From positions 1-31,113 of IMG/VR virus record IMGVR_UViG_3300017776_000090: a DNA stretch of 31,113 nt. One strand, written 5' to 3'. A program made the position numbers and the translations under genes. Positions 9,712-31,113 of the stretch are shown piece after piece (the first letter of the stretch is position 1; every line of letters begins with the position of its first letter). Origin of the DNA: a virus. The notes under the pieces were generated by a model, which was not told where the DNA came from, made no database searches, and worked only from the letters and a program-made list of their open reading frames with translations.

Positions 9712-10457
9712 TGGCTTCAGATACCGATCATTTTGCGATCTTAGACCGATTAGCAGACAGGCATGAAGAGCGTTTAGCTTCTGCCTTAAACGTCTTAGAA
9801 GAGCGCGTAAGCGATCTAATGGCTACTGCACCGATAAGGGATGGTCAGTTGTTTGATTTAGAGTGGGCGTTAAATACTCGCACACAGCTAAGACAAATGA
9901 TTGATGAAGAATACTTAGGTACAGTTGATGGCATCATTAGAGAGTATGATGATGTTGCTGTTGGTGCAGCAGATATGCTCAGAGAGTATGGCGATATAGT
10001 CAACTTAGATCAGTCGGTTGTAAGCCAGTTACAGCAGTTGACGTTTCAGGGCTTTGAGGACATTGGCACAGAGTATCTTGATGTTATTGCTAAGCAGGTA
10101 TATGAAAGCACTCTTACAGGCACTACGTTTGCACAGAGTGTTGCCGCAGTCAAAGATGTAGTCGGTAAGGATATGTCTCGATATGCAAGCCAGCAGGTGC
10201 ATGATGCTTTGACTCAGTTTGATCGCACAGTGAATACTAAGATAGCGTTAGACTCAGGAGCAGAGAAGTTTAAGTACAGAGGCTCTGATGACAGTAAGAC
10301 TAGATCGTTTTGCCGTAAGCACGTTAATAAGACGTACACGATAGATGAGATCAACGAGATATGGCAAGGAGAGTGGTCTGGTAAAAGCAGTAGCAATGCT
10401 TTTGTGAGTGCAGGTGGCTATAACTGCCGCCATAGATTTAGACCAGTTTTTGACTAA
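9711..10457 (+). CDS. Head morphogenesis protein (Mu F / SPP1 gp7 family)
   Basis: C-terminal KTRSFCRKH…GGYNCRHRFRPV matches the Mu-F-type Cys/His signature. It follows the portal gene. Confidence 0.8.
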   Translation: MASDTDHFAILDRLADRHEERLASALNVLEERVSDLMATAPIRDGQLFDLEWALNTRTQLRQMIDEEYLGTVDGIIREYDDVAVGAADMLREYGDIVNLDQSVVSQLQQLTFQGFEDIGTEYLDVIAKQVYESTLTGTTFAQSVAAVKDVVGKDMSRYASQQVHDALTQFDRTVNTKIALDSGAEKFKYRGSDDSKTRSFCRKHVNKTYTIDEINEIWQGEWSGKSSSNAFVSAGGYNCRHRFRPVFD

Positions 10458-10469
10458 GAGGTAAAGACA

Positions 10470-10544
10470 ATGCCACAAGGTAAAGGTACATACGGAAGCA
10501 AGGTCGGTAGACCTAAAAAGAAGAAACGCAAAACTAAGAAATAA
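10470..10544 (+). CDS. Candidate 24-aa polybasic micro-ORF MPQGKGTYGSKVGRPKKKKRKTKK
   Basis: AAGAGGT lies 6 nt upstream of the ATG. It occupies an otherwise empty 134-bp gap. Confidence 0.35.
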   Translation: MPQGKGTYGSKVGRPKKKKRKTKK

Positions 10545-10591
10545 TGTGTTAAGCTATTAATTCACCAACTACTCCTAGTGAGGTTCGTAAC

Positions 10592-11254
10592 ATGAGCGAT
10601 GAAATCATGGAAACCGTAGAAGCTGAAACTGAGACAGCAGCAGTAGAAACTCAGGCAAAGACATTTTCACAAGAAGAACTAGACCGAATCGTTGCTGATC
10701 GGATTGCTAGAGAACAGCGCAAGTTTGATAAGAAGCTAGGTGGCATCAACTTAGATGAAGCCAAAGAGTTACTTACTCAAAAGGAACAAGCTGAGATTGA
10801 GCAACAAAAACAGCGCGGAGAGTTTGATTCTATCTTAAAGCAAACTGTCGAAAAGAAAGATGCAGTTATCAACAGCTATAAAAGCAGGTTGCAAGAGACG
10901 TTGATTGATGGACAATTAACCAGTGCGGCTAGTCGAAATAATGCAGTTGATACAGCACAAGTAACAGCCTTATTAAAAAGTAATACTCGACTAAATGAAG
11001 ATGGGGCAGTCGAGATTGTGGATTCTAACGGAACTCCGCGTTACAATGATAAAGGTGATCTGTTATCTGTCGATGAGATGGTTACAGAATTTTTGACTGT
11101 AAACCCACACTTTGTACGTGCCTCACAAGGCGGTGCAGGTAGCTTGGGTAGCGCAGGTGGCTCAACTCCGAAGCCTCAATCGGTGGAATGGATGGTCGAG
11201 AATTGGAATAGCGGTGGCAAAGAAGCCTATGCCGCTACGAAAAGAAAGACCTAA
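10592..11254 (+). CDS. Scaffolding protein
   Basis: Acidic N-terminus and a helical region rich in Q/E/K (FSQEELDRIVADRIAREQRKFDKK). It lies immediately upstream of the capsid gene. Confidence 0.7.
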   Translation: MSDEIMETVEAETETAAVETQAKTFSQEELDRIVADRIAREQRKFDKKLGGINLDEAKELLTQKEQAEIEQQKQRGEFDSILKQTVEKKDAVINSYKSRLQETLIDGQLTSAASRNNAVDTAQVTALLKSNTRLNEDGAVEIVDSNGTPRYNDKGDLLSVDEMVTEFLTVNPHFVRASQGGAGSLGSAGGSTPKPQSVEWMVENWNSGGKEAYAATKRKT

Positions 11255-11293
11255 TTTTAAATTTTATTCTTTCTATTTTTTGAGGTTATTATT

Positions 11294-12163
11294 ATGAGTT
11301 TTACAGGTAGTGCAGTACATGATGCTGGCGGTGGTGCTGGCAATGAGAACAATCTATCGGATTTGTTCACCAATATTATTGCTCAAGCGCGTTTTACAGC
11401 CGAAGAGCAATCACTAATGCTAGGTCTAGTTACTCAATACAACATTGGTAACGTAGCTGGTAAAACAATCCAAGTGCCTAAGTATCCAGCAATTGCGGCG
11501 GCAAATTTAACAGAAGGTACTGACATGAGTTCAACTCGCGTTAATACTACATCTGTTTCTGTAACTGTTGGCGAAGTAGGCGCACAAGTTGTTCTTACTG
11601 ATCTAGCGGCTATGGGTGCTGGCAATCCAGCAGACGAGTTAGGCACAGTTCTTGGTAATGCTATTGCTACCAAGATTGATAAAGACCTAATTGCTTTGTT
11701 TGACGGCTTCAGCACTTCTTTCGGTGCAACTACTGAAGAACTAACTGTTGCACACTTGTTTAAAGCGGCGGCAACTTTGCGTAACAACAAAGTGACTGGC
11801 TCAATGGCTTGTGTTCTAAACCCATTAGCGGCTTACAACTTAAAAGCTAACCTTACTAACACATTTGCTAACCCTAATGGTGGCGACTTACAAAACGAAG
11901 CTATGCGTAATGGCTACGTTGGTTCTATTGCTGGTATCGATGTATATGAGTCAGCTAATGTTGCTGTAGACGGTTCTGGTGATTCTAAAGGTGCAGTATT
12001 TGCTCCTGAAGCTCTTGCAATCGCTCTTAAGTCTGATTTCAACTTAGAAGTACAACGTGACGCATCACTACGTGCTAACGAGTTGAACGCTACTGCTGTA
12101 TATGGTGTAGCTGAGTTAGACGATGACTTCGGTGTTGAACTATACGTTGACGCAGGTCTTTAA
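11294..12163 (+). CDS. Major capsid protein (HK97-fold type)
   Basis: 289 aa, strong GAGG RBS, higher GC and biased codons, followed by a hairpin, and positioned after the scaffold gene. Confidence 0.85.
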   Translation: MSFTGSAVHDAGGGAGNENNLSDLFTNIIAQARFTAEEQSLMLGLVTQYNIGNVAGKTIQVPKYPAIAAANLTEGTDMSSTRVNTTSVSVTVGEVGAQVVLTDLAAMGAGNPADELGTVLGNAIATKIDKDLIALFDGFSTSFGATTEELTVAHLFKAAATLRNNKVTGSMACVLNPLAAYNLKANLTNTFANPNGGDLQNEAMRNGYVGSIAGIDVYESANVAVDGSGDSKGAVFAPEALAIALKSDFNLEVQRDASLRANELNATAVYGVAELDDDFGVELYVDAGL

Positions 12164-17107: not shown

Positions 17108-17709
17108 TGTCTAGGGCTTTAGCAACACAAATGGAAGCGGCTGTTACTGCTGATCTAGTGCGTCCAGTATTCCTAGTTGATTTAATGTTTTCATCGCCAA
17201 TTTACCTTTCAACCATTATAGGAGAGACTGTTTTCAATAACGGTTCTGGAAACAACAACTATTATGGAGTTGGTGAACTATTAAAAATGTCTACAGTTGA
17301 AGAAGTGCAAGATTTAGGCGCGGCAGGAATAACGCTCAATCTATCAGGTATCAACGGCACAGAACTATTGACTAAGGCACTTACTGAAGATTATCAAGGA
17401 AAGACTGTAACAATAAGGCTTGGGGCTTTAGACGCGCAGGGTGCGCTAGTTACTGATCCAGTTATAATATTTGCAGGTTTTATGGATGTTATGTCGCTTA
17501 ATGAAGGCGGTGGAACTGGTGAGATACAATTGAAAGTAGAAAATAAACTTATACGTTTAGATAGAACTAGGGTTCGCAGATACACTAGTCAGGATCAAAG
17601 GGCGGTACATCCGACTGATAAGGGTTTTGATTACGTTACAAACATAGCGCAAAAAGATATTACATGGGGCGCACAAACAGAAAAGGCGGCAAAACAACAA
17701 CTGCAATAG
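17107..17709 (+). CDS. Tail hub protein (DUF2163 / BR0599-like as I recall it)
   Basis: ATG 17107 (TGATG overlap). The pattern VRPVFLVDL…YYGVGELLKMSTVEE…GKTVTIRLG…RRYTSQDQ resembles the family found in GTA-like tails. Confidence 0.5.
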   Translation: MSRALATQMEAAVTADLVRPVFLVDLMFSSPIYLSTIIGETVFNNGSGNNNYYGVGELLKMSTVEEVQDLGAAGITLNLSGINGTELLTKALTEDYQGKTVTIRLGALDAQGALVTDPVIIFAGFMDVMSLNEGGGTGEIQLKVENKLIRLDRTRVRRYTSQDQRAVHPTDKGFDYVTNIAQKDITWGAQTEKAAKQQLQ

Positions 17710-17717
17710 GGGGCAAT

Positions 17718-18167
17718 ATGAAGCTACAAGAGGAATCATATTTAGAAGTTTGTGAGGATATAAAGCCATTAATAAAGATGCACTGGGAACAAATAGCACT
17801 CAACAAAGACAAGATTATTTTAAATCCAGATTGGGATGAATATCAAAGGCTATACAATTCAGGCAATCTAAAGATTTACACAGCGCGAAAAAAGCATGAA
17901 TTAGTTGGCTATTTCATAGTAGCGGTTGCAAAAAACATACATTATAAAGATCATTTGTTTGCTAATTGCGATATTATATACGTTAAGCCAGATAGCAGGG
18001 CAGGCATGACAGGATATAAGTTAATAACTTTTGCAGAGAACGAATTAAAAAATTTAGGCGTTTCAGTGCTGAACATAAATACAAAAATACACACACCTTT
18101 TGATAAGCTATTAGTGCGTATGCACTTTGGGCTTATAGAAAGACTATACTCAAAGTTTATAGGTTAA
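17718..18167 (+). CDS. GNAT-like N-acetyltransferase (149 aa) embedded in the tail-tip module
   Basis: ATG 17718 lies after AGGGGG. LVGYFIVAVAKNIHYKDHLFANCDIIYVKPDSRAGMTGYKLITFAENELKNLGV resembles the GNAT beta4-alpha3 acetyl-CoA motif. The match to R/QxxGxG/A is imperfect. Confidence 0.5.
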   Translation: MKLQEESYLEVCEDIKPLIKMHWEQIALNKDKIILNPDWDEYQRLYNSGNLKIYTARKKHELVGYFIVAVAKNIHYKDHLFANCDIIYVKPDSRAGMTGYKLITFAENELKNLGVSVLNINTKIHTPFDKLLVRMHFGLIERLYSKFIG

Positions 18168-18169
18168 TT

Positions 18170-20929
18170 ATGGCAGTTGCGGCATTTGCAGCATTAGTTC
18201 AAACAGTCGCTACAATAGCAGGCGGAACTGCTTTTGGGGCTATGACTTTTTTTGGCGCAACAGGATTTACAGCATATCTAGCTATGACTGCTACTTATGC
18301 CGTACTAGGCGCAATTAGTAGAGAACTGTTTGCACAGCCAAGCCTAGACACTATGAATGGCATAAACTTTAATGTGCGCGATCCTGCCGCCACAAGAAAA
18401 ATCATCTATGGTAAGTGTCGAGTTGGTGGCGCAATTGTTTTCTTTAATACATCAGACACCGATAACAACTTTTTGCATTTAGTTATTGCGGTTGCAGGGC
18501 ATGAGATTGAAAGCTACGAAGAAGTTTATTTTGGCGACACAAAGGTATGGGAAAATGGAAACTATGTAGACGATGAAACTACAGATTGGCAAGATCACTG
18601 CCTATTAAGTTTTCACAAGGGCGATCAGACTACGGCAGACACTACGCTAGTTAGTGCCGCAACTGGATTTACTAACGATCACAAACTTCTTAATACTGCT
18701 TATGTTTATGTGCGACTAGATTACAACGCTGAAGTTTACGTTTCAGGCGTTCCTAATATTTCGTTTGTTGTTAAAGGTAAAAAGATTTTAAATCCTAGTA
18801 ACGGAGCAACAGCATACAGCAACAACCCTGCACTTATTGCCTATGACTATTTGCGAGACACTGATTATGGTTTAGGTGAAAGCGCGGCAAACATAGACAC
18901 CCCTTCAGTCATAGCATCTGCGGCAGTATGCGATGCTACTGTAAATATTACTGGCGGCACACAGAAAGCCTTTGAATGTGATGGTGTTTTAGATAGCGGA
19001 ACAAATATAAAAGCAAACTTGGAAGCAATTTTGTCAAGCATGATTGGCACAGTCAGTTATTATAATGGCAAGTTTTCAATCATAGCGCACAAACACTACG
19101 CGCCTGTATCTGACGCAGTTGAAACTTCTATGATAGTTGCACCAATACAGGTCAGCACAAAGCGAAGCAGAAAGTCACAACACAACACAGTCAAAGGTCA
19201 ATTCATTTCAGAAGAAAATAATTATATTGTTGCTGACTACCCTATACAAAAAAACGCATCTTACATAACACAAGATGGCGAAGAAATGCCTTTAAACTTA
19301 ACTCTAGCTATGACAACTAACAATGTCAGGGCGCAAAGAATCGCTAAACTTGTAATGGAAAAGTCGCGGCAACAAATGACAATTAGCATGGAGTTAAATT
19401 TAAACGGTTTAAAATATGCTGTTGGTGATAATATAAAAATTAACTACGCTCGGTTTAGTTGGTCAAACAAAGAGTTTGAGATAACAAGGTTACAATTAAT
19501 ACCAGACCCAGAGCGAGGAATGATTGTTGCTGTTGAGGCGGTAGAAAACAGCAGTTCTGCCTATGATTGGGTTGCAGGTGATGCGACTGCCTTTGTTGTT
19601 GCGCCTGCAATTAGTGTTTACAGCGGAACTGAAGTAGTAGCACCTACAAATTTAAACGTATATAAACATGCAGATAATGTTGATAGAAAGTTTAGATTCA
19701 CATGGGCAGGTGTAGAAGCGGCAGATAATGCAAGCCCAAGTGAACCCTATTTTAAGCATTACAGAATAGATTTCCGCGATGGACATAATGGGCGTAGTAA
19801 TTTTTCTGCAACAACGACTGAGACGCATTTCGATGTAATATTGAATGAAATTACTTGGAGAGGTCAACACTTTTCATGGAGAGTGACAGTTTATGCAGTT
19901 AATGTACGTGGTTATAGTAGCATTGAAAGCAATACGAAAGTCGTTACAGTTAGAGATTATGGCGATTTTGCACCAGACCCAAGACAAGATAATTTTGTGC
20001 AAGGTCTAAGTGATAGCCCGACTGTTTCAGATATTAACAGTCTGGCATACGACAAAGGCATAGAGATAGTAAATGGTACAGTTATTACTTACTTACAGGT
20101 TAATCCAGCTAACGTAATTTTGAACACTACAGAGTTTGTATACGAAGATGGAAGTATATTACCTGTGAGAAATGCAGGCTCAATAACCGAAAATCAAGAC
20201 ACAAGCACTGAATTAGTAAGCGGTGGTAATCCGATGAGTGCCACTGAATGGGTGCATGGATCAAATGACACTAGCATTGCTAATGGTGTTTTGACAGGTA
20301 CAGGTATATTACTAGGTCAAAATTTTGTTATTAAATCAATACAGCTAGCAGATGTCACTGCTAATTACACAGTTAAAATAGTTATTGATTCTATAACTGT
20401 TAATGGCGGTGGGCAGCTTAAAGTAAAAATACATGATGCAGAAACTTTTGCGACTTTGTCAGAACAATCCTACACTACAACAGGGACAAAAACATTTACT
20501 TTTGACAGTGTTGGGGCTTTGATTATACTCTCTGTGCAAGGAACAAGTCTCACTGACAGTATTGACTATGCAATCAGTCAAATCTCTATAAAACAAACGC
20601 CAATTAATGCTTTTGAAGAATATAAATTTTTTACGCCAAGTTGGGCAACTGGAGAAGTAACTTGGAATGGACTTCAAGGCGAACAAACTGGAATTACTGA
20701 TAGCGGTGTCACATACACATTAACTGGCTTTAGTGGTGCTAACTTGATAGAAGATGAAAGAAAATATGTTGCTGTAAGGCTTGAAAGAAGCAGTGCGAGT
20801 GTTGGTTTTTCACAGTCTACCATTACTATAAGTGCTGAATGGTCTGAACCAGAAATCATTAATGGTGTTACCCATAACACTGTTAAAAGAGCATCCATTA
20901 CTAAAACTTTATCTGCGAGAATAACTTAA
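18170..20929 (+). CDS. Host-specificity / central tail fibre protein (lambda J / GTA g15-like)
   Basis: 919 aa. RKIIYGKCRVGGAIVFFNT…HLVIAVAGHEIESYEEVYFGD is the Phage-tail_3-type motif. It has an Ala/Gly-rich hydrophobic N-terminus and an FN3-like segment (APTNLNVYKH…FRFTW). Confidence 0.8.
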   Translation: MAVAAFAALVQTVATIAGGTAFGAMTFFGATGFTAYLAMTATYAVLGAISRELFAQPSLDTMNGINFNVRDPAATRKIIYGKCRVGGAIVFFNTSDTDNNFLHLVIAVAGHEIESYEEVYFGDTKVWENGNYVDDETTDWQDHCLLSFHKGDQTTADTTLVSAATGFTNDHKLLNTAYVYVRLDYNAEVYVSGVPNISFVVKGKKILNPSNGATAYSNNPALIAYDYLRDTDYGLGESAANIDTPSVIASAAVCDATVNITGGTQKAFECDGVLDSGTNIKANLEAILSSMIGTVSYYNGKFSIIAHKHYAPVSDAVETSMIVAPIQVSTKRSRKSQHNTVKGQFISEENNYIVADYPIQKNASYITQDGEEMPLNLTLAMTTNNVRAQRIAKLVMEKSRQQMTISMELNLNGLKYAVGDNIKINYARFSWSNKEFEITRLQLIPDPERGMIVAVEAVENSSSAYDWVAGDATAFVVAPAISVYSGTEVVAPTNLNVYKHADNVDRKFRFTWAGVEAADNASPSEPYFKHYRIDFRDGHNGRSNFSATTTETHFDVILNEITWRGQHFSWRVTVYAVNVRGYSSIESNTKVVTVRDYGDFAPDPRQDNFVQGLSDSPTVSDINSLAYDKGIEIVNGTVITYLQVNPANVILNTTEFVYEDGSILPVRNAGSITENQDTSTELVSGGNPMSATEWVHGSNDTSIANGVLTGTGILLGQNFVIKSIQLADVTANYTVKIVIDSITVNGGGQLKVKIHDAETFATLSEQSYTTTGTKTFTFDSVGALIILSVQGTSLTDSIDYAISQISIKQTPINAFEEYKFFTPSWATGEVTWNGLQGEQTGITDSGVTYTLTGFSGANLIEDERKYVAVRLERSSASVGFSQSTITISAEWSEPEIINGVTHNTVKRASITKTLSARIT

Positions 20930-22149
20930 TGAGTTGGCAGAAAAAACCACCAAGAATATCTGGCAACTTTATTGTTGATGGTACGCTTGAAGCTAAACAT
21001 ATAAAAGCAACCACCATTACTGCGGACAAGTTTAGCGGTGCAGTTGAGGAAGAATATTGGGCTTATATTAGCGATAAAGATGTTTCTTTTGCTTATAGCG
21101 GATATACAACTGCGCTAGAGTTCACATTTCCAAAAACTGATCTAGAGATATTTAAAGGTAGGCACGTTCATTACTGCGGTGAAGCTGAAATGAACACAGG
21201 GACTAGTACACAATATGACGGTTTTTTGTTTTTAAGATTAGAAGCAGAAGTTCCTAGCGTACAGGCATCGACTATTATTGGAGACGCAAAGCATCTAGTT
21301 ACATCAGGTTCGTATCAGCTTGTTTATTTTGACGGAAACTTAGCAACAAATCGCATTGGTAGCGGCGGTAGCATTGGTACACTTGGTGGGAACTATAGAA
21401 CATATAGAAAACTTTCTTACGATCCGAAAGGGGCGCAAGGCAGTGAGTTAGTAACTAACGGTGCATTTAACTCAGGCACAGCTAATTGGACTGTTGGCGC
21501 GGGCGGTCACTCATCTGGATATGGTGCTTACTCTGTGACTAGTGATGTAACTAATAACGGATTTACCTATCAGGCTATAACAACTGTTGTTGGCGAGAAG
21601 TATCAGGTGACTGGCAATATAGTTAATGGTGTTGCGAACGGTGAAATAAGGATTACATCTGCGCCTAACCTTGATAGCGAAAGTCAGATTGCTACTAGTA
21701 CAGTTTACACTGGCTCACAGGCGGTTGATTTTGAATTTACAGCTACAAGCACAACAACTTATATCGTGCTAAAAGCATCAGGAACATCAGCTGGTCAAAG
21801 TGTCGGTTTTGATAACATAGTTTGCAAGCAGTATCTAAGAAGAACGTATCTTGAATTAAGCACAACTGGTGGAGCGATTGTAAACACTGATGGCAGTACA
21901 GCGGTCAGCCTTTACTATCACCCTTATAGTGGTGCATCATCTGGAACTTACCAAGTAGTAGATAACTATACGCAAAAAACTAGAACAAAAGCATATACAA
22001 ACTTCTTTAGGTTTCAAACTGAGGCGTATATAGGTTGGTTTAATGATGATATTAAGTTGAGATTAACTTGCCTTAATCAGATTGCATTTGGCAAGACTGT
22101 AACCTTAAACGATGTTAAGATATTCATGCAGAGTAGGATAGTAGAATGA
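20929..22149 (+). CDS. Tail fibre / receptor-binding protein with a carbohydrate-binding-module-like domain
   Basis: GSELVTNGAFNSGTANWTVGAGG…YQVTGNIV… is typical of CBM4/9-like jelly-roll starts. TAATG coupling to the J-like gene. Confidence 0.55.
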   Translation: MSWQKKPPRISGNFIVDGTLEAKHIKATTITADKFSGAVEEEYWAYISDKDVSFAYSGYTTALEFTFPKTDLEIFKGRHVHYCGEAEMNTGTSTQYDGFLFLRLEAEVPSVQASTIIGDAKHLVTSGSYQLVYFDGNLATNRIGSGGSIGTLGGNYRTYRKLSYDPKGAQGSELVTNGAFNSGTANWTVGAGGHSSGYGAYSVTSDVTNNGFTYQAITTVVGEKYQVTGNIVNGVANGEIRITSAPNLDSESQIATSTVYTGSQAVDFEFTATSTTTYIVLKASGTSAGQSVGFDNIVCKQYLRRTYLELSTTGGAIVNTDGSTAVSLYYHPYSGASSGTYQVVDNYTQKTRTKAYTNFFRFQTEAYIGWFNDDIKLRLTCLNQIAFGKTVTLNDVKIFMQSRIVE

Positions 22150-22361
22150 TAGTGATCGGATACCAGAAATTAGTTAACGATGAAGAAATAGTAGACGTTG
22201 TTTTTGAAGAACACGAAGATAGAGATGATGCTGAGGACGCTTTAAACAGGCTTGTAGCGACTGAAGCAGACTTAGAAAATATCATTAACTATTTCTGGGC
22301 GATTAAACACGACAACAGCTATAAGATAATGGCTATAAAAGACAAAATTATTGAGGTTTAA
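22146..22361 (+). CDS. Small acidic hypothetical protein (71 aa)
   Basis: ATGA overlap with the upstream gene. No motif recognised. Confidence 0.55.
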   Translation: MIVIGYQKLVNDEEIVDVVFEEHEDRDDAEDALNRLVATEADLENIINYFWAIKHDNSYKIMAIKDKIIEV

Positions 22362-22362
22362 A

Positions 22363-22713
22363 ATGACAGCGGCTAAATATGATATTGAAATTGATCAAGG
22401 CTCTAGCTTTGCACTATCTATAACTGTAAGTGAGAATGGCTCACCAAAAAACCTATCACAATTTACACCAAGAGCGCAAATGCGCCCTTCTGTTGATTCG
22501 CCAGATACAGATAAAGTAGATTTTACCTTTGATTCTACAAATCTTGCATCAGGCATTATAATTTTGAAATTAACTCATACTGCTAGTAGTGCAATGGTTG
22601 CTGGTAATTATTTTTACGACTTAGAAATTTTTACTGGTACTGCTCCTAATGAAACTTCTGTGACTAGAATCATGCAAGGCAAAGCTGTTGTTAATCCAGA
22701 GGTAACTAAATAA
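22363..22713 (+). CDS. Ig-like beta-sandwich structural protein (BppU-N-like flavour)
   Basis: ATG 22363 lies after GAGG; the track start 22351 is TTG. The pattern YDIEIDQGSSF…NLSQFTPRAQMR…GNYFYDLEI matches this fold class. Confidence 0.4.
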   Translation: MTAAKYDIEIDQGSSFALSITVSENGSPKNLSQFTPRAQMRPSVDSPDTDKVDFTFDSTNLASGIIILKLTHTASSAMVAGNYFYDLEIFTGTAPNETSVTRIMQGKAVVNPEVTK

Positions 22714-25343
22714 TGACTATTACTGTATCTGTAACTAAAGATGTAACATCCTTATCAGTAACAGATTCGGTTACTCAGTTAAATATTGTCCCACAAACAA
22801 CTAGCATTGCCCTACAAAATATTGCAATAACTCAATCTAATAATGCCAGCGTTATTGGATATACTCCTAGTGGGCATCTTGAAGCTACAACAATACAAGC
22901 CGCATTAGATGAAATTGCCGCATCACCAGAGTTTACTGCCGCGCTAAATACCAAGTTACAAAATTTAAGCGCATCAGCAGATGAAACAAATACGGCTAAT
23001 GTGGTTAGCGCATTAAGTGCTGGTTCTAATATTTCCATTGCAGAAGATGGCACAATTGCCGCTAATGTATTAGGCGCAATATCGGGCGGTACAGGAATAG
23101 ATATTGATGCTGGTGGCGTAATAAGTGTCAGTGATATTGCCATTGCAACAGTTCAAACAGCCGCAGATGAAACAGCGCACTTAGCATTAACTACCCAGCA
23201 AGGTGATGTTGTTATTAGAACCGATGTTAATAAATCCTATATTCATAATGGTGGCACTGCTGGAACAATGGCTGATTTTACAGAATTGGCAACAAATACG
23301 AATGGCGTTATTTCTATAAATGGCGCAACTGGCGCAGTAACATTCGGTAAATCTAATTTAAATGATTATAGTGCTAATGAGTTTATAGATTGGACTATTT
23401 CACAGACAGAAAACATACACGCTGACAATTATACTAATACCACCTATTCGGCTGGCACAGGCATTCAAATAAGTGAATCAAATGAAATATCTGCAACTGG
23501 TGGTGGTTCGGGCGGTACAAGTTTTACTGCAAGTGGAAATATAAACTTAGATAACCAAAACAATCTTGACACGATTAGCAATCCATTATTTGATGAAGTT
23601 CGCTTTAGTAGCCTTGACGGCACTGCTGACTCTGGTGTTCTTATCAAGAGATTCCCTATAGAACTATACACATCGGGATTATACGGAGAAGGGCTAGGAA
23701 TATTTTTTAATAATAACGGCAATGAGCAGGTAGTAGGGGCAATACTTGAAACTGGATTCGCTGTTTTGGGTGAATTTGATACTAATACAGGCTTGAAAAT
23801 TGCAGGTTACAGATTTTTATTTGAAGCACAAGGATGGGATGAAAGAGGCGGCGTGTTAGCGACAGGTGGTCAACAGTATGTAGCACCGCAGGTATATAAT
23901 TTTGAAACTGACACAGCTACTTTTAATGCAGGTAGCGGTGATAATACAAGGCAAGACCACCGCAACCACAATCTATGGATACATCCTAACACTAGCGTTT
24001 TCATGCGTGATGAAGATGATGGTGGGAATATAAGTGGTGACTATAATCTAGTTAACAAAAAATACGTTGATGATAATCTTAATAACCTAAACGTGCCGAA
24101 CCTGCCTAATGTAAGCGGCACAACTTCAGAAGATAAACAATATTTGCTTGCAGGTAGTAATAGCTACTCAAGTTTAGGTTTTAATACTTTTTTAGGTGCA
24201 TCTGTTCACGTTTCTGGCGGAATGCACTTCGGACTTGTAGACCAAAATGTTAGCACTACTAAGTTTGGATTGCGTCTTGAGGCTGGTTCAGGCGTAACTT
24301 TAAACCGAACTAATGACTTTCATTGGACAATTAACGCTAATCCAGATGGATTGCCTGACCAAACTTCAGGAACAGATGGCTATGTTTTAACTAGTGTTAA
24401 TGAATCTGCCGCTTGGCAACCTGTAGGCAACGTAGTTTTTCCTACGCAAAGTGCCAACACTATCGGCTATGTTTTAACTAGCAATGGACTAACTGCACAA
24501 TGGCAACCTAACGACAGCTATCCATCACAAACTGACAACAGCGGCAAGTTTTTACAAACATTCAACGGCAGTGTTAGATGGGCAGAGGTAGATGCACTGC
24601 CAACACAATCTACCAATACAAGTAGTAATGATTACAGCGCAGGTAAGTTTCTTGCTAGTAACGGAGATAACGCATATTGGCACGTTCCTTCTAGCAGTGT
24701 TCCTGACCAAGATTCACATAACGGAAAGTTTCTAACAACTAATGGCTCACAATTAAGCTGGTCAACGATTAACACAGCAGGGACAACTGGCAATATTTCA
24801 TTTAGCACAAACACTATTTCGTCAAGCGATACGAGTATAAATATAGACGATGATTTGAATGTTCAGGGCGTATTAGATGCCGAAAGATTAGATGTTAGCG
24901 GAGCAGGTGCGCCTACTATAGAATCTATTGGTGCTTTTAACATTACCGCTCCTGATGGCGTTTATTGTAACCAGAAGCGCGTAGATGTTGATACGCCATT
25001 TGCTGTTCTTTATATTAGCTTTACAGCTAATATGGGGCAAATTACTAATTCAACTTTCATAGGCGAACGATATAACGGAAGTCCAACCGCACCTAATATG
25101 TTCATACAATCATCAGGGAATGGAAAGCAGATTGTTATTTCGTCTGTAGGCGCGAACGCGGCTAGTGATTATTTTGTTGAGGTTGCGCATAATTATGATA
25201 CGTTTATTACTAGAGACGATGAACCAGTTCGCATTGGCGTTCACAAATCAGGCTCTCAAGTTAATATTGTCTTAGCGCAGGGCGACAGCGTTTCTGCACC
25301 AGAGCAATCAGGTATGGTAAAGGTAAAATATTATGCTGTCTAG
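22713..25343 (+). CDS. Tail fibre protein (876 aa) with five tandem P-x-Q…G[KY][FV]L…W repeats
   Basis: The N-terminal …VIGYTPSGHLEATTIQAALDEIA motif is common in fibres. The protein is Gly/Asn/Thr-rich, with repeats at 24351-24773. Confidence 0.8.
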   Translation: MTITVSVTKDVTSLSVTDSVTQLNIVPQTTSIALQNIAITQSNNASVIGYTPSGHLEATTIQAALDEIAASPEFTAALNTKLQNLSASADETNTANVVSALSAGSNISIAEDGTIAANVLGAISGGTGIDIDAGGVISVSDIAIATVQTAADETAHLALTTQQGDVVIRTDVNKSYIHNGGTAGTMADFTELATNTNGVISINGATGAVTFGKSNLNDYSANEFIDWTISQTENIHADNYTNTTYSAGTGIQISESNEISATGGGSGGTSFTASGNINLDNQNNLDTISNPLFDEVRFSSLDGTADSGVLIKRFPIELYTSGLYGEGLGIFFNNNGNEQVVGAILETGFAVLGEFDTNTGLKIAGYRFLFEAQGWDERGGVLATGGQQYVAPQVYNFETDTATFNAGSGDNTRQDHRNHNLWIHPNTSVFMRDEDDGGNISGDYNLVNKKYVDDNLNNLNVPNLPNVSGTTSEDKQYLLAGSNSYSSLGFNTFLGASVHVSGGMHFGLVDQNVSTTKFGLRLEAGSGVTLNRTNDFHWTINANPDGLPDQTSGTDGYVLTSVNESAAWQPVGNVVFPTQSANTIGYVLTSNGLTAQWQPNDSYPSQTDNSGKFLQTFNGSVRWAEVDALPTQSTNTSSNDYSAGKFLASNGDNAYWHVPSSSVPDQDSHNGKFLTTNGSQLSWSTINTAGTTGNISFSTNTISSSDTSINIDDDLNVQGVLDAERLDVSGAGAPTIESIGAFNITAPDGVYCNQKRVDVDTPFAVLYISFTANMGQITNSTFIGERYNGSPTAPNMFIQSSGNGKQIVISSVGANAASDYFVEVAHNYDTFITRDDEPVRIGVHKSGSQVNIVLAQGDSVSAPEQSGMVKVKYYAV

Positions 25344-27366
25344 ATATATGGTTTTGTCGGCAGAAGGTATTAATGTCTCTGAAATAGATGCTTTAGTAGC
25401 AGGTAGCATAATCACAAATAGTATACCTGATAGGTCAGTAGAAGTTTTGCCAGAAAACGTGCTTTCTAAACGATGTTCAGTTTATAAATTAACTACAGAA
25501 GAAGCGGATGAACTGAAAAAAAGCAATTTAGTAAAATCTGTTGAATTACATATTGAAGATAACCCAAACGTACTGTCAGTACATACAGGCGTTAGCAGTG
25601 ATAATTACGATAGAAAAAGTTTTGATGCTAATAATCTTAGTTATGCTAATTATGGTTTGATTAGGCACACAAGTAGGGAATCATCATTATATGATTTAGA
25701 TGGCAGTATTAATTCACAGTTTAGTGACCAATATAAATATTCTAATTCTGGTGAAGGTGTAGATATATTTATTATGGATACTGGAGTTCAAGCTAACCAC
25801 CCTGACTTTTTAGATGAATACGGAAAAAGCAGAGTACAGCAAATAGATTGGACAAAATATATAGAACAAAACTATCCTAATTATTTTACATCCGAGAGGC
25901 GAGAGGCTTTAAAACCTGAAAACTATTATCAAGACAATGAAGGTTTTCATGGCACTCAATGCGCGAGTATAGCTGCAGGGAATCGCTATGGTTGGGCTAA
26001 AAAAGCACATATATATTCATTGAAAATAAATCTAGCAGGCTATAATTATCATCTGCCCTCACACTATCAGATGCTAGTGGCTATGAAAAGTTTTATTGAA
26101 GAAAGACAAGCTAACGGAATCAATAGACCTGCGATTTTAAGTAATAGCTGGGGGATTATAAGGCTATTTTCTAGCATGAGTAATGTTACTGGTGGATTTT
26201 ATGCTGATGAAAATACAACTGGCACACAATGGTCGAGAGGTAATTTAACAAATAGTCAGATACAAGCTACCTATAAAATACTACCGACTACATATCTAAC
26301 TGCCAACTACGAATCTATTAACCAAGATGTACAAGATTTGATAGATATAGGCGTACACATTGTAGCTAGTGCCGCTAATCATGGTGCTAGAATGTTGCCA
26401 AGAAATGACGCAGAATATAATAATATAATTAATTGGACTGATGACGAGGGAGAAAGTCAATCAGCACCATATAATCAAGTGTCAACACCTCACGCCGATG
26501 AAGCAATTATAGTAGGTGGACTGTCAGAAAATTTGCACAATAACAATGGAAACACACAAGAACAAATTGTTAATTATAGTGTTCGCGGAAAGCGCGTAGA
26601 TGTAATGGCAGCTAGTGACGGTTGCTTTGCGGCTGTTAGTGAATTGGCAACTAATAAACCTAACCAACGACAACACCCTGATAATTCATCACAGTTTATA
26701 GGCGAGTTTGGCGGCACAAGTTGCTCTTGCCCACAGACAGCAGGTGTAATGGCTCTGCACTTGTCTAATAAGCCGCACCTAAAACCTGATGCCCTAAGAG
26801 AATTAATAATAAATGAATCTACTAAAGACGTTATTCTTGGCACTGGCGGCTTTGCTGATGTAAATCCTTTTTTAGATACGCCTAACAGGATGCTTTATAG
26901 CAAGTTTAATCAAGATGTTAGTCTAACTACGGCAGGTGCATATAAGATTATTAATGCTAATATTAGCGGTGAATATAAATTTAAAACTAAGTTTAGGTCA
27001 GATAATGTTATATTTAAAACTAACGGAGTAGCACAAGATAACGATGGTTTTTTTGTATTAACAGATACTGACGCTTTATATGAAGGTTCTACTATACGTT
27101 ACATAGAAATATGGCAAGCGGCTCGCAGAACGCAGTTGAATTTGGTTTTTGATGCACACCCTGTTAAAATGAAAACACATAATTGGAATACTTTAGAAAT
27201 ACAGAACCATACTCTAAATGTGTTTGTAAAATTACATAGAACTGACGCTGTTTTTGATCCAATTAAACAATCTTTTTATTGGGATACAGATAAATATACT
27301 AGTTTTAATACAAGCCCAATTTTATCAAACAGTGGCATACCAGATAATTCAATAGGCATAAGATGA
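25333..27366 (+). CDS. Subtilisin-like serine protease (peptidase S8) with an I9-like propeptide and a C-terminal extra domain
   Basis: The catalytic triad motifs occur in S8 order: IMDTG (Asp at 25777-25779), HGTQCAS (His at 25948-25950), GGTSCSCPQTAG (Ser at 26719-26721), plus NSWG. The N-terminal VYKLTTEEADELKKSNLVKSVE resembles an I9 propeptide. There is no signal peptide. Confidence 0.85.
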   Translation: MLSRYMVLSAEGINVSEIDALVAGSIITNSIPDRSVEVLPENVLSKRCSVYKLTTEEADELKKSNLVKSVELHIEDNPNVLSVHTGVSSDNYDRKSFDANNLSYANYGLIRHTSRESSLYDLDGSINSQFSDQYKYSNSGEGVDIFIMDTGVQANHPDFLDEYGKSRVQQIDWTKYIEQNYPNYFTSERREALKPENYYQDNEGFHGTQCASIAAGNRYGWAKKAHIYSLKINLAGYNYHLPSHYQMLVAMKSFIEERQANGINRPAILSNSWGIIRLFSSMSNVTGGFYADENTTGTQWSRGNLTNSQIQATYKILPTTYLTANYESINQDVQDLIDIGVHIVASAANHGARMLPRNDAEYNNIINWTDDEGESQSAPYNQVSTPHADEAIIVGGLSENLHNNNGNTQEQIVNYSVRGKRVDVMAASDGCFAAVSELATNKPNQRQHPDNSSQFIGEFGGTSCSCPQTAGVMALHLSNKPHLKPDALRELIINESTKDVILGTGGFADVNPFLDTPNRMLYSKFNQDVSLTTAGAYKIINANISGEYKFKTKFRSDNVIFKTNGVAQDNDGFFVLTDTDALYEGSTIRYIEIWQAARRTQLNLVFDAHPVKMKTHNWNTLEIQNHTLNVFVKLHRTDAVFDPIKQSFYWDTDKYTSFNTSPILSNSGIPDNSIGIR

Positions 27367-27530
27367 TGGCACAGGAAACAAAACAAGCAATGGATTTAGT
27401 CGCGGCATCAACAGGTATTCTTTCATTAGCCGCTTGGCTACCACCCATTGCCGCAATATTCACTATTGTTTGGTATGGAATTAGGATTTGGGAAAGCGAC
27501 ACTGTAAAATCTATTCGTTGTAAAAAGTGA
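27363..27530 (+). CDS. Two-TM microprotein, holin/antiholin-like (55 aa)
   Basis: MMAQETKQAMDLVAASTGILSLAAWLPPIAAIFTIVWYGIRIWESDTVKSIRCKK has two hydrophobic segments and a basic tail. ATGA overlap with the S8 gene. It is below the track cutoff. Confidence 0.5.
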   Translation: MMAQETKQAMDLVAASTGILSLAAWLPPIAAIFTIVWYGIRIWESDTVKSIRCKK

Positions 27531-28141
27531 AAAAATTATTATTATTATTTTTATTTAGCAGTTTTGTTAATGCAAACCAGCAAGAAGGTTCGCTAAATAC
27601 ATATAATGGAGAAGGTGCAACCACCAATTCCAACAATACAACAGAAGATAATTCCACTAGCAATTCTTATTCAGGCGCAGGTGCGTCTAGTCAAATACCT
27701 GTTGGTTCTGCAATATCTCCGACTTATATGAGCAATGGCGTTGAAACTTGTTTAAAAGGTACAGGTTCGTCTTTCCAAACAGTGTTGCTAGGTTGGTCTA
27801 GGGGTAAGTATGTAGATTCAGAAGGATGCACTAGGCGAAGGGATGCGCTAGTTTTAAACCAATTAGGAATGGCTGTTGGCGCAATTAGCAGATTGTGCGA
27901 TTCAGTTAAAGTGTTCAGGGCTATGCTTAACAGTGGCACACCTTGTCCGATTTTATCAGGGGGAAAATTAGTGGTTGGTCGAAAAGCTATCATGGTTTTG
28001 AAGGCACAGCCAGAAACTTACATTCCAGATTACAGTGACGACAAAGAATATTATGACGCACTGTTACAAATTGGCGAGGTTGTAGAAAATGAAGAAGGCG
28101 ATATTGATATTGTTGCTAAGTTCCGCACTAGCAAGCAGTAA
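27527..28141 (+). CDS. Secreted protein (204 aa, Sec signal peptide, N/S/T-rich linker, 4-Cys domain)
   Basis: The GTG start overlaps the upstream TGA (GTGA). VKKLLLLFLFSSFVNA|NQQ is a signal-peptidase-I-type leader with no lipobox. Confidence 0.6.
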   Translation: MKKLLLLFLFSSFVNANQQEGSLNTYNGEGATTNSNNTTEDNSTSNSYSGAGASSQIPVGSAISPTYMSNGVETCLKGTGSSFQTVLLGWSRGKYVDSEGCTRRRDALVLNQLGMAVGAISRLCDSVKVFRAMLNSGTPCPILSGGKLVVGRKAIMVLKAQPETYIPDYSDDKEYYDALLQIGEVVENEEGDIDIVAKFRTSKQ

Positions 28142-28910
28142 CGAATTAGACTATTTGATAGAGTCAACATCTAGCATTGTTGACCAAATGAACAAAGGCG
28201 TTCAAATGGTTGGTGCAGGTCTTGAATACTCACATCAAGGCACAGGCTTATCTGATGGTACAATGCACCTAGAGGCGCAAATTACTAGCGCACAATTGTC
28301 TGCATACAACTCAGCCCTGATTAATATGTCAAACTACTTGCCTTATGGCGACACAAAACAGACGCTTTTAGATATGGCAGACGAGCATTTGCAAATTGTC
28401 GATGAAAGCGTAGATGTTTTTACTAGTGCCGTAGTACAAATGCAGACAGCGCATCAGGTGGTTGAAATGGCAGAGACAGCCGCCACCCCCAACGAAGAAG
28501 AACAGGTTAAAGACTTTGTAACAGCTAACGTAGAAAGCCTACAAATAACACAAGAGACTGTTGACGATTATAATAGCAGTCTGGAGTCGATTGAAGAAAA
28601 TGCTAACATTGCATCTAGCTTTATTGCAGTTGCTAACAACACTGAAGCTACTGAATTTTTGCGACAAGGTGCAGAAGACAATAGCACAACAGCAGAAATG
28701 TCTACTGTAGCTTATGACGCTAATCAGCAATGGGTTAAAATGACCTACAGCAACGGCAACGCAAACGCTGTTTTTCTTAATGGTCAAAGTTTTGGTTTGG
28801 ACTTATATCTAACTGGCGCAGAAATATTAGCCGCAGGTAGTGAATCTGAATATTATCAAACTAGCCCAATGCTTAATGGCTACAACTGCTACTTTAATCA
28901 GGATTGCTAA
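28089..28910 (+). CDS. Secreted protein (273 aa, Sec signal peptide)
   Basis: MKKAILILLLSSALA|SSNE leader. The start lies 53 nt inside the preceding gene. The product is acidic with C-terminal Cys residues. Confidence 0.65.
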   Translation: MKKAILILLLSSALASSNELDYLIESTSSIVDQMNKGVQMVGAGLEYSHQGTGLSDGTMHLEAQITSAQLSAYNSALINMSNYLPYGDTKQTLLDMADEHLQIVDESVDVFTSAVVQMQTAHQVVEMAETAATPNEEEQVKDFVTANVESLQITQETVDDYNSSLESIEENANIASSFIAVANNTEATEFLRQGAEDNSTTAEMSTVAYDANQQWVKMTYSNGNANAVFLNGQSFGLDLYLTGAEILAAGSESEYYQTSPMLNGYNCYFNQDC

Positions 28911-29386
28911 TGTCTTTAGAAGATACAGAAATAAAAATAGGCGGCACATCATTCAAGGGCATTTATGTGGCTATAGTATTGTCATTAGCAACAAGTCTTG
29001 GTGGGGTATTCTGGAGTGCTAGTAGCCTGTATAGTAGACTAGAAGCAGTCGAATCAATAACTATTCCAGACGTACAGCCTATGCAAGAAGAACTACAGTT
29101 AATAAAACAGCAGTTACAAGACAACGAAATTGGTGCTTTAAGCGCAAAATTAGCGACTTTAGGCACTAACCTTGCAACCATAATGGATCAGCAAGAAAAG
29201 CTGTTAGAACTCAAATCTGAGCTTTCTACGCTATCTAAAGAGATAGAGGCTATGAAAGGCACAGTTGCGGCGGCTGAAATTACAACCAGAGATAACGAAG
29301 ATATTGCAGATCGTATAACTGTACTTACAAAAGAGGCAGAAGATTTGTGGCAAGCAATCTCATATTTATCGAACCCCTATAGGTGA
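28910..29386 (+). CDS. N-terminally anchored coiled-coil membrane protein (i-spanin-like topology)
   Basis: ATG 28910 (TAATG overlap; the track start 28904 is TTG). TM segment IYVAIVLSLATSLGGVFW, followed by heptad-like E/L/Q-rich sequence. Confidence 0.6.
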   Translation: MSLEDTEIKIGGTSFKGIYVAIVLSLATSLGGVFWSASSLYSRLEAVESITIPDVQPMQEELQLIKQQLQDNEIGALSAKLATLGTNLATIMDQQEKLLELKSELSTLSKEIEAMKGTVAAAEITTRDNEDIADRITVLTKEAEDLWQAISYLSNPYR

Positions 29387-29389
29387 TTT

Positions 29390-29761
29390 ATGTGGCAATC
29401 ATTAATAAGCCCAATAGCTAACATAGCAGGTGGCTACTTAAAGAACAAAGCAGAAGAAAAGCAAGCCAAGCACAAAGCAAAAATGAGCATGATTAAAAAC
29501 GATGCTGAGTGGGAAAATAAGATGGTTGATGCCTCTGCAAACAGCCTTAAAGATGAATTTTGGACTGGCGTTTTGGCTATCCCAATTTTTATGATTGGTT
29601 ATGCTATAGTAGTTAATGATTTGACAGTTATTGATAGAGTTGAGCAGGGCTTTGCGGCATTAAGTCAACTGCCAGAATGGTATCAATACCTATTATTTAT
29701 TTGCATCAGTTCCAGTTTTGGAATTAAAGGTGCATCAAAACTTATGAATTTGAGGAAGTAA
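29390..29761 (+). CDS. Holin (3-TM type, resembling the GTA-release holin family as I recall it)
   Basis: AGGTGA RBS. It has an N-terminal amphipathic/basic region then hydrophobic segments (WTGVLAIPIFMIGYAIVV, YQYLLFICISSSFGI). It lies directly upstream of the endolysin. Confidence 0.55.
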   Translation: MWQSLISPIANIAGGYLKNKAEEKQAKHKAKMSMIKNDAEWENKMVDASANSLKDEFWTGVLAIPIFMIGYAIVVNDLTVIDRVEQGFAALSQLPEWYQYLLFICISSSFGIKGASKLMNLRK

Positions 29762-29762
29762 C

Positions 29763-30191
29763 ATGACAGACACTAAGCCAAAGGCAAAAGCCAAGCCAAA
29801 ACAAAGCGCAAAAAACTATTTTACTGAAAAAGAGTTAAAGTGTAAGCACACTGGCGAGTATTTTTTTGATGAAAAGTTTTTAGAAAAGTTAAACAAAATT
29901 AGAGAAGAATGCGGTTTCCCTTTTCCAGTATCATCTGCTTGTAGATCGCCCCTACATCCAATTGAACAGCGGAAACAATTTGTTGGGGTACATACAACTG
30001 GCAAGGCCGTTGATATTTTATGTAGAGGCGAAGATGCCTTAAAGCTAATTTCTGTAGCACAGAAGCATGGCATCACTAGAATTGGAGTACAGCAAAAAGG
30101 TACTGGTAGATTTATCCATATAGATGGTTGCACTAAAGAAGATTTTCCTGATGTAGAAAACTACCCAGAAGTGTCAATCTGGTCTTACTAG
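29763..30191 (+). CDS. Endolysin, peptidase M15 (zinc D-Ala-D-Ala / L-Ala-D-Glu peptidase type)
   Basis: The motifs VHTTGKAVDI (H..G.A.D) and RFIHID (H.D), together with EKELKCKHTG…LNKIREECGFPFPVSSACRSP, match Peptidase_M15_3. Confidence 0.8.
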   Translation: MTDTKPKAKAKPKQSAKNYFTEKELKCKHTGEYFFDEKFLEKLNKIREECGFPFPVSSACRSPLHPIEQRKQFVGVHTTGKAVDILCRGEDALKLISVAQKHGITRIGVQQKGTGRFIHIDGCTKEDFPDVENYPEVSIWSY

Positions 30192-30222: not shown

Positions 30223-30246
30223 GCCCCTTAATTGGGGCTTTTTTTT
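30223..30246 (+). terminator. Rho-independent terminator gcccc-ttaatt-ggggc + T8
   Basis: 5-bp GC stem, 6-nt loop and eight consecutive T residues. It lies 32 nt after the endolysin stop. Confidence 0.8.
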
Positions 30247-30704: not shown

Positions 30705-31113
30705 TAGTACAGAAACAAATGAACTAGCGTTAGCATTGTGTCTAGCGCAAGGTCAGATGGGGGGTGCTGTCAAAGACAGTGCCAACCCATTCTTTAAATC
30801 AAGCTATGCTGATCTAACGTCAGTCATCAAGGCTATCAAGCAACCATTTGGTGATAATGGTCTAAGCTACACGCAGTTGCCTGTAAGCAATGAAATAGGC
30901 GTAGGCGTAGCAACTAGACTAATGCACGTTTCAGGACAATGGCTAGAGTCAGAGTTTGTACTGCCTATTGTAAAACAAGACCCACAAGCGGCAGGTTCAG
31001 CTATCACTTATGCGCGAAGATATGCACTACAGTCTATCGCAGGTATACCGACAGCAGACGATGATGCAGAATCTGCAATGCTTAGATCAGAACAGACTAA
31101 AACTCAAGAATAC
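30697..31113 (+). CDS. erf: ERF-family recombinase, 5' part (continues at base 124 of the window after the repeat)
   Basis: ATG 30697 lies after GGGAG and is open to the window end (139 codons). It reads in frame with 1..330 through the 123-bp repeat. Confidence 0.8.
   Translation, partial: MNSSTETNELALALCLAQGQMGGAVKDSANPFFKSSYADLTSVIKAIKQPFGDNGLSYTQLPVSNEIGVGVATRLMHVSGQWLESEFVLPIVKQDPQAAGSAITYARRYALQSIAGIPTADDDAESAMLRSEQTKTQEY
30991..31113. repeat. Terminal direct repeat, copy 2 (identical to 1..123)
   Basis: Exact 123/123 identity with the window start. Confidence 0.95.

Follow-up and report, generated by a model that had tools for sequence, protein, structure and literature searches.

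Why does a phage genome carry, at the very end of its tail genes, a complete gene for a subtilisin-like protease? The question arose from a DNA stretch of 31,113 nt (IMG/VR virus record IMGVR_UViG_3300017776_000090, positions 1 to 31,113), which is referred to here as the window. From the letters of this sequence, an original prediction had proposed that a 677-aa open reading frame (ORF) on the + strand encodes a peptidase of family S8 (subtilase) that is linked to the phage tail. The ORF, at positions 25333-27366, was confirmed as real. Judged from its sequence and predicted structure, the encoded protein is a catalytically intact and apparently active subtilase precursor. A tail-linked protease is well supported by the gene order in relatives, and we infer a location in the virion and a substrate on the host surface.

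The assignment to family S8 was verified with profile searches. The Pfam profile Peptidase_S8 (PF00082) matched residues 140-498 with 88.1 bits (E = 8e-25), well above its gathering cut-off of 21.8. Matches were also obtained with two families of the PHROG collection, namely 9158 (E = 5e-52) and 3677 ('protease'), while the NCBIfam scan returned sub-threshold matches only. The best sequence matches in the Protein Data Bank (PDB) were a keratinase, aqualysin and proteinase K. The Asp/His/Ser triad was located in the canonical order that had been read from the motifs MDTG (D149), HGT (H206) and GTSCSCPQTAG (S463). Conservation was assessed on 21 aligned homologues of full length (31-98% identical) and on a wider set of 62 distinct relatives from viral contigs. 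On alignment of the homologues all three catalytic residues held their place, as did the oxyanion Asn349, and the four residues were also present in the homologues of S-SCSM1, S-CREM1, S-TIM54 and a Melnitz-like contig. The S8 gene is clearly maintained by purifying selection, with a dN/dS ratio of 0.26 in comparison with a 98.9%-identical relative (0.24 for the upstream fibre gene).

The presence of two cysteines in the serine motif, in place of the usual GTSMAxP, had been pointed out as peculiar. Both are indeed present, but Cys466 is not conserved and Cys464 is kept only within the subfamily. In the wider family, 52 of 62 sequences carry Met directly after the catalytic serine, the residue that ordinary subtilisins have there, and a double cysteine is therefore unsupported as a hallmark of the family. 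A redox pair formed by Cys210 and Cys464 beside the catalytic His and Ser was considered as well. No claim is made for it, as Cys210 is not constant and is replaced in some members of the subfamily and in half of the wider family.

A structural model was calculated with AlphaFold2 on the 21-sequence alignment (predicted local distance difference test, pLDDT, 81.7; predicted template modelling score, pTM, 0.81). The model suggests three parts: a prodomain resembling inhibitor family I9, a catalytic core of proteinase K type with insertions, and a C-terminal beta-sandwich. Foldseek comparison of the predicted structure with proteinase K, aqualysin and Vibrio proteinase gave target-normalised TM-scores of 0.75-0.81 (E = 1e-13 to 1e-16). 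According to both its sequence and its predicted fold, the protein is a member of subfamily S8A, the proteinase K subfamily.

The I9-like propeptide of the original prediction could be recognised in the predicted fold, but only weakly at the sequence level. In the AlphaFold2 model, DSSP assigned strands to residues 3-9, 37-39, 48-53 and 67-72 and helices to residues 15-23 and 55-61. The top PDB matches in Foldseek were unprocessed pro-forms: ProN-Tk-SP (3afg), pro-subtilisin E (3whi) and PCSK9. In contrast, the window protein had no match to Pfam Inhibitor_I9 (PF05922), to which only three of 16 homologous N-terminal domains matched (best E = 0.047), and a profile of the N-terminal domain had zero matches among PDB sequences. 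Given this agreement of folds and the weak sequence matches, the term 'I9-like' is valid at the level of the predicted fold only. The domain stands at the N-terminus of nearly all relatives. There is no signal peptide, as had been stated; in the model, a folded domain begins at the N-terminus with its first strand and helix. The prodomain is followed by a linker modelled with low confidence, in which R94, N106, G108, L109 and R111 are invariant among the 21 homologues. Here the motif N(Y/W)GLxR(H/C) at residues 106-112 (NYGLIRH in the window) recurs in the cyanophage and Melnitz-like homologues; we take it to be the equivalent of WGLxRI in proteinase K, which directly follows the pro-peptide cleavage site. 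An autoprocessing site would then lie at about residues 90-103.

The C-terminal domain had been noted as unrecognised and about 190 aa long. It remained unrecognised in our searches, but the models limit it to about 150 aa (residues 530-677). Modelled alone it reached a pLDDT of 77, and Foldseek with the isolated domain gave nothing significant, the best match being the lectin part of a coronavirus haemagglutinin-esterase (E = 0.06). When 1.84 billion representative proteins were searched with a profile of the domain, it was confined to the C-termini of proteins of 620-690 aa with the same layout; the exceptions were three short sequences (161-293 aa) and three weak matches in multiple stretches. 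No other part of the S8 protein has diverged as far.

In order to place the enzyme among its relatives, several databases were searched. Megablast of positions 22000-28200 against 50,697 phage records gave no match, which indicates that no close cultured relative exists among these records. Translated searches of T4-like cyanophages recovered distant homologues (less than 30% identity), whose annotations read peptidase, subtilisin-like protease, baseplate wedge subunit or virion structural protein. A metagenomic protein database contained some 20 homologues that are full-length, at about 680 aa, and many versions of about 520 aa that are devoid of the C-terminal domain. Longer relatives display C-terminal extensions of immunoglobulin (Ig)-like, Reeler or Calx-beta(-like) type. 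Altogether 208 relatives were found in viral contigs (the loci carrying them are given L-numbers), while a scan of 185,579 bacterial and archaeal species, with one genome per species, returned only two weak ones, of which one lies on a 3-kb contig of a metagenome-assembled genome. The S8 clade is thus essentially phage-specific.

The original prediction had linked the gene to the 876-aa fibre gene upstream by their overlap of 11 nt. This overlap was confirmed, and the linkage turned out to be stronger than first claimed. In every contig of siphovirus type that was examined, the order is a J-like fibre gene, three genes of which the last two are small, a fibre gene of about 840-880 aa, and the S8 gene with an overlapping start. 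The 11-nt overlap is kept in L002, L015, L017, L018 and L095 and amounts to 4 nt in L003 and L019; order and overlapping start persist among these relatives even at 31-50% identity. In the window, an AAGG Shine-Dalgarno-like site precedes the S8 start codon at a spacing of 9 nt. The fibre-like nature of the 876-aa protein was corroborated by matches to tail PHROGs and by repeated G(K/Y)(F/V)L..(N/D)G...W motifs, while its C-terminal 276 aa had no match in the Pfam scan. It is homologous to the gene directly upstream of S8 (position -1) in L002, L003, L015-L019 and L095. In L001, a 2.3-kb gap in the source's gene calls upstream of S8 (7645-10011) contains an uninterrupted fibre ORF of at least 788 aa which carries the fibre module described below.

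A survey of gene neighbourhoods was then made at 75 viral loci with a single delimitable S8 gene. The surveyed genes almost always start with the prodomain and have large flanking genes on the same strand. At 64 loci, the -1 genes form one similarity cluster with the fibre of the window. An iterated hidden Markov model (HMM) of fibre residues 605-756, the fibre module, matched 44 neighbouring proteins of 230-876 aa, among which 38 are encoded at -1; the same module is therefore present directly upstream of S8 at 38 of the 75 loci. These counts are drawn from the neighbours of S8 genes, and when cultured phages were searched with the module by tblastn, one weak match was obtained.

Beyond the module the ends of the -1 proteins vary: some carry a tip of about 120 aa like that of the window, and others a conserved motif of 41-50 aa, FRLP..TT.ER.AL....GDMIYN.T.NK.Q.Y.NG.W..L. 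Among the window's relatives the fibre tip is only 10-39% identical (two near-identical pairs aside) as compared with 41-66% for the module; it is the fastest-diverging part of the fibre and is exchanged for the short motif or for other tips at other loci. The end motif, in the form FRLPSFTTTERDAL....GDMIYNTTTNK.Q.Y.NGAW..L, was seen directly after the shared module at L020, L024, L028, L039, L042, L049, L056, L058, L060, L071 and L094. It is missing from the fibre of the window, and the three proteins scanned (L020, L049 and L094) gave no Pfam match for it. Comparison of the fibre tip with the C-terminal domain of S8 by hhalign revealed no relationship. When the identities of fibre and S8 parts were correlated domain by domain over seven loci, all parts correlated alike, owing to shared ancestry.

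Two further features of the S8 neighbourhoods are reported for completeness. In L023 (5634-8310), L025 (8175-10902), L032 (10022-12731) and L075 (10160-12887), a second and divergent S8-like stretch lies just upstream of the main S8 gene, with 25-40% identity to residues 200-472 of the query S8 protein or to less of it; the S8 genes may thus be tandem paralogues, or the upstream gene may end in an S8 domain. In L008 and L009 (also in L033, L041, L044, L063, L078 and L092), the genes that flank S8 encode glycosyltransferase, epimerase, aminotransferase and methyltransferase functions and look like a phage-borne cluster for sugar modification beside a large fibre-like gene.

Relatives of the T4-like type place the protease in the structural part of the genome as well. 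In S-SCSM1, the S8 domain is the N-terminal part of a 1411-aa protein (gp144) which is encoded among tail-fibre genes, annotated as 'virion protein', and 24% identical to the S8 protein of the window. The paper on this phage includes mass spectrometry of CsCl-purified virions (PMC9602691). In S-TIM54 the domain is contained in a 2140-aa 'virion structural protein', in S-CREM1 the gene (S-CREM1_165) lies between baseplate genes, and in L021 the neighbouring gene is annotated as 'baseplate wedge tail fiber connector'. A Melnitz-like contig of T4 type has the S8 gene in its structural module, after the gp23 capsid gene, and 'sheath subtilisin' is one of the four structural marker genes named in the Melnitz paper (PMC9004378). 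A tail-linked protease had been regarded as an unusual strategy. This holds in so far as its chemistry is that of a protease and not of a glycanase, but S8 genes are already annotated in T4-like cyanophages and serve as a marker in Melnitz-type phages. For virion or tail subtilases, the open-access literature yielded annotations only and no functional study.

These data are best accommodated if the S8 protein is a virion-associated, accessory enzyme of the distal tail that acts on a host surface protein, a reading which we adopt tentatively and to which we give a little less than an even chance. Such a role is proposed on the basis of the synteny across morphotypes, the structural fusions, the one virion-protein annotation and the variable C-termini resembling binding domains. 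The S8 protein would be made alongside the fibre. Its prodomain would assist folding and then be removed at the site suggested above, as in other subtilases, and the mature enzyme would ride on the distal tail, at the fibre or the periphery of the baseplate. The C-terminal beta-sandwich would bind the host surface or the fibre; its counterpart in longer relatives would be the Ig-like extensions, and it is absent from the forms of about 520 aa. Ig-like, Reeler and Calx-beta extensions are typical surface-binding modules. The protease would cut a host surface protein, which may be an S-layer, an outer-membrane protein, a pilus or a proteinaceous sheath. Cleavage could expose or trigger a receptor at adsorption, or destroy receptors on debris at release.

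Several observations weigh against this reading. The close relatives are all metagenomic contigs, and the phage group is known here from its genes alone. The hint at a virion location comes from a fusion protein of only 24% identity, gp144, which may or may not be among the 45 proteins detected in S-SCSM1. The fibre module was not found in the -1 genes of the cultured phages S-SCSM1 and S-CREM1, so that the pairing of S8 and module is frequent but not universal. No virion-anchor or trimerisation domain is recognisable in the S8 protein, and a prodomain at the N-terminus is typical of free secreted proteases. Finally, the S8 gene of the window abuts the lysis cassette, to which it is no less near than to the fibre gene. 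Its stop codon also overlaps the next start, which indicates that gene overlap is general in the late operon, and the coupling is thus not specific to the fibre junction. A wider form of the proposal, that several marine phage morphotypes carry an active fibre or baseplate subtilase, docked via the conserved module, which opens or triggers a proteinaceous host surface at adsorption, is possible but doubtful.

The first alternative is a protease for maturation or assembly of the fibre. Its target, within the infected cell, would be the upstream gene's product, from which it might for instance remove the C-terminal tip or a segment resembling a chaperone. It would thereby do in trans what the S74 chaperone domains of other fibres do by self-cleavage, and it need not remain in the virion. 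The position directly after a fibre gene is the classic site of fibre assembly factors (lambda Tfa, T4 gp38), and S8 occupies this position. The strict adjacency to the module-bearing gene (38 of 44 module matches at -1), the conserved overlapping start of S8, and the conserved junction with a 41-50-aa tail after the module in many -1 proteins are equally in line with such a function. The tips of the -1 proteins are, however, so diverse that a common cleavage site is not evident, and no similarity to known fibre chaperones was found in Pfam, PHROG or NCBIfam. Moreover, the fusion of S8 into very large structural proteins annotated as virion components argues for a role in the particle, and the variable Ig-like or beta-sandwich C-termini resemble binding modules rather than parts of a housekeeping enzyme. 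We regard fibre maturation as an unlikely explanation.

Of comparably low probability is a soluble late protease that is freed at lysis and not bound to the virion, whether as a receptor-destroying enzyme that breaks down host envelope proteins or receptors on debris and on cells nearby, as a lysis-assisting one, or as one that frees nutrients. As a signal peptide is lacking, such an enzyme would have no way out of the cell other than holin lesions or lysis, and in the window and in L003 the S8 gene shares an operon with the holin and endolysin genes and lies just 5' of them. The succession of prodomain, core and C-terminal domain is also the build of free extracellular subtilases such as Tk-SP. 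What speaks against a soluble enzyme is that S8 is linked in position to the fibre gene. Its downstream neighbours in the wider family differ and are mostly unannotated, and no lysis gene was identified among those sampled. In T4-like contigs S8 sits among baseplate and fibre genes, and the fusions to structural proteins again do not suit a soluble enzyme.

The original prediction had also considered that the protease might process the secreted proteins encoded downstream. The N-termini of the 204-aa and 273-aa proteins are indeed signal-peptide-like, and in the window and in closer relatives the genes are adjacent and overlapping. Yet both genes are missing beside S8 in L003 and L019 and throughout the wider family, where the link to the fibre persists. 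Since they do not accompany the S8 gene, a dedicated processing of their products is very unlikely; furthermore, a protease that has no signal peptide would be in another compartment than its exported substrates until lysis.

A separate acquisition of the gene had been suspected from its AT-richness. The GC content of the S8 gene (35.3%) does lie below that of the window (39.5%; between-gene standard deviation (SD) 2.9 points), but the difference had been overstated, as lines of 60 nt span 22-50% and the capsid gene has 43.2% instead of about 50%. The S8 gene is about 1.5 SD under the gene mean, several core genes are just as AT-rich, and its codon usage compared with the rest of the genome (cosine 0.93) falls inside the range of the other long genes. 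Horizontal acquisition based on GC was rejected on these figures, the GC gap being small and the codon usage typical. That S8 is a recently acquired, host-derived cargo gene ('moron') without a role in the tail is hardly credible: apart from the slightly lower GC there is little to suggest it, and the clade is almost absent from cellular species genomes and common in viral contigs, keeps its synteny down to about 30% identity and is embedded in fibre or baseplate modules, which is at odds with a host-derived cargo unlinked to tail genes.

A capsid-maturation (prohead) protease was likewise rejected. Prohead proteases belong to families S14, S77, S78 or S80 and are encoded between the portal and major capsid genes, while the S8 gene stands at the far end of the tail module. 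The T4-like relatives additionally carry an S77 protease of their own, which counts against such a role for S8. In the portal-to-capsid interval of the window (9711-12163), only Mu-F-like and scaffold proteins were found and no prohead protease was recognised, so that this capsid probably matures without proteolysis.

Table 1. Features of the S8 locus and its surroundings in the window. Fractions refer to the 21 full-length homologues and the 62 wider relatives, respectively.
Feature	Position	Strand	Basis or remark
Tail fibre gene, 876 aa, directly upstream of S8	22713..25343	+	
Conserved fibre module, fibre aa 605-756	24525..24980	+	Iterated HMM
Variable distal fibre tip, 120 aa	24981..25340	+	
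Fibre/S8 junction	25320..25343	+	AAGGT Shine-Dalgarno-like site; S8 ATG 25333; fibre TAG 25341-25343
S8 subtilase gene, 677 aa, proteinase K type	25333..27366	+	ORF, Pfam PF00082, PHROG, AlphaFold2
Prodomain, aa 1-84, predicted I9-like beta-alpha-beta-beta-alpha-beta	25333..25584	+	DSSP, Foldseek
Low-confidence linker, aa 85-139	25585..25749	+	pLDDT 45-66
Catalytic core with insertions, aa 140-525	25750..26907	+	
Asp149 (MDTG), catalytic	25777..25779	+	21/21 and 62/62
His206 (HGTQC), catalytic	25948..25950	+	21/21 and 61/62
Asn349 (SAANHG), oxyanion hole	26377..26379	+	21/21 and 62/62
Ser463 (GTSC), catalytic	26719..26721	+	21/21 and 62/62
Predicted C-terminal beta-sandwich, aa 530-677, subfamily-specific	26920..27363	+	AlphaFold2 models
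55-aa membrane protein	27363..27530	+	Start overlaps S8 stop (ATGA 27363-27366)
Two overlapping genes, 204-aa and 273-aa signal-peptide proteins	27527..28910	+	
Lysis genes: 160-aa membrane-anchored coiled-coil protein, 123-aa holin-like protein, 142-aa M15 endolysin	28904..30191	+	
Terminator-like hairpin and T-run ending the late operon	30223..30246 (hairpin 30223-30238)	+	3' of the endolysin gene

The remaining features of the window (Table 1) agree with the position of S8 as the final gene of the tail module. Both ends of the window (1-123 and 30991-31113) are an identical direct repeat of 123 nt, from which it follows that the window represents the complete genome of the phage, assembled as a circle of about 30,990 bp. 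The phage is a small marine one, and its gene content is that of a siphovirus-type genome. The + strand carries every long gene. Recombination and Nin-type genes are followed by the head genes (terminase, portal, Mu-F-like protein, scaffold and major capsid protein) and by the tail genes for the major tail protein, the tape measure, the distal tail protein and a J-like central fibre (18170-20929). Between the latter and the fibre gene that precedes S8 lie three small genes.

Downstream of S8, a 54-aa gene occupies the place of the 55-aa membrane protein gene in L001, L002 and L095, and the genes of the 204-aa and 273-aa proteins are kept in closer relatives only. The endolysin was recognised by matches to Pfam Peptidase_M15_3 and to PHROG 894 (endolysin). 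The 160-aa and 123-aa proteins of the lysis region were called from transmembrane and coiled-coil features, and the L002 homologue of the holin-like protein matches GTA_holin_3TM. Between the fibre and the endolysin genes no terminator-like hairpin comparable to the one at 30223 was found. With this lone convincing hairpin after the endolysin gene, the fibre, S8 and lysis genes are considered as one late transcription unit.

Some of these neighbouring genes deserve a brief mention. The four genes at 27363-29386, in the interval between S8 and holin, have nearly no family matches, only the 204-aa protein matching PHROG 20531 (function unknown); they are conserved in closer relatives only and may include spanin-like or superinfection-exclusion functions. 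In the tail module of two relatives (L001, 2801-3253; L002, 653-1120), a gene matching Pfam Acetyltransf_1 (GNAT-type acetyltransferase) lies directly upstream of the J-like fibre gene. The window gene in the matching position (17664-18167) gave no match in the Pfam scan.

A conserved and apparently active protease whose gene keeps company with fibre genes in more than 200 viral contigs from the sea directs attention to a so far unstudied stage of adsorption or fibre maturation. Relatives are found in phages of abundant ocean bacteria, namely cyanobacteria and, for the Melnitz-like contigs, hosts of OM43 type. Being small and self-contained, the family lends itself readily to expression, and with S-SCSM1, S-CREM1 and Melnitz as cultured relatives its function is directly testable. 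Should the role of S8 be confined to fibre maturation or to the time after lysis, the interest of the system would be narrower.

Among known phage systems, the characterised virion-borne enzymes that open a path to the receptor are mostly glycan-degrading. Virion-associated depolymerases and tailspikes likewise have the enzyme gene in the tail-fibre module, co-expressed with a receptor-binding fibre, and possess a variable distal domain. In comparison, the S8 protein of the window is a protease and a putative virion component, whose model has neither a trimeric beta-helix nor an N-terminal anchor domain. The S74 chaperone domains of fibres and endosialidases are serine peptidases with a comparable genetic link to the C-terminus of a fibre; however, they are fused, self-cleaving and built on a Ser-Lys dyad, whereas S8 is a separate gene with an Asp-His-Ser triad. 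With the fibre chaperones Tfa and gp38, S8 shares the gene position alone.

As an enzyme of subfamily S8A, the protein is ordinary apart from its unusual C-terminal domain. It has the order of Asp, His and Ser and the oxyanion Asn in common with proteinase K, aqualysin I and the Meiothermus keratinase, together with the motifs G.GV.I.I.DTG...HP.F, HGT.CA and GTS...P and a WGLxR-like motif after the prodomain. It differs from them in having no signal peptide, a catalytic region made about 120 residues longer by insertions, Cys in place of Met after the catalytic Ser, a new C-terminal beta-sandwich according to the models, and a gene within a phage tail module. Tk-SP of Thermococcus kodakarensis (3afg), the top PDB match in Foldseek, displays the same three-part layout, with a beta-jelly-roll at the C-terminus. 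It is a secreted cellular enzyme of 15% identity, and the C-terminal domains of the two proteins are not demonstrably related.

Among the closest known counterparts are the S8 proteins of T4-like cyanophages and of myophages of the Melnitz/HTVC008M type. Phage S8 families are already catalogued (PHROG 9158 and 3677) and annotated in genomes of cyanophage and pelagiphage type. These proteins belong to the same phage-restricted clade, share the prodomain, the intact triad and the setting among baseplate or fibre genes, and gave the best matches in a library of viral structures. In contrast to the S8 protein of the window, to which they are 24-30% identical, they are encoded in T4-like myovirus genomes, have Met after the catalytic Ser, and either lack its C-terminal domain or carry long Ig-like or structural extensions instead. 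Beyond what was catalogued, the present analysis adds the restriction of the clade to phages, the invariance of its catalytic residues, the strong positional pairing with a particular fibre module and a C-terminal domain specific to the subfamily.

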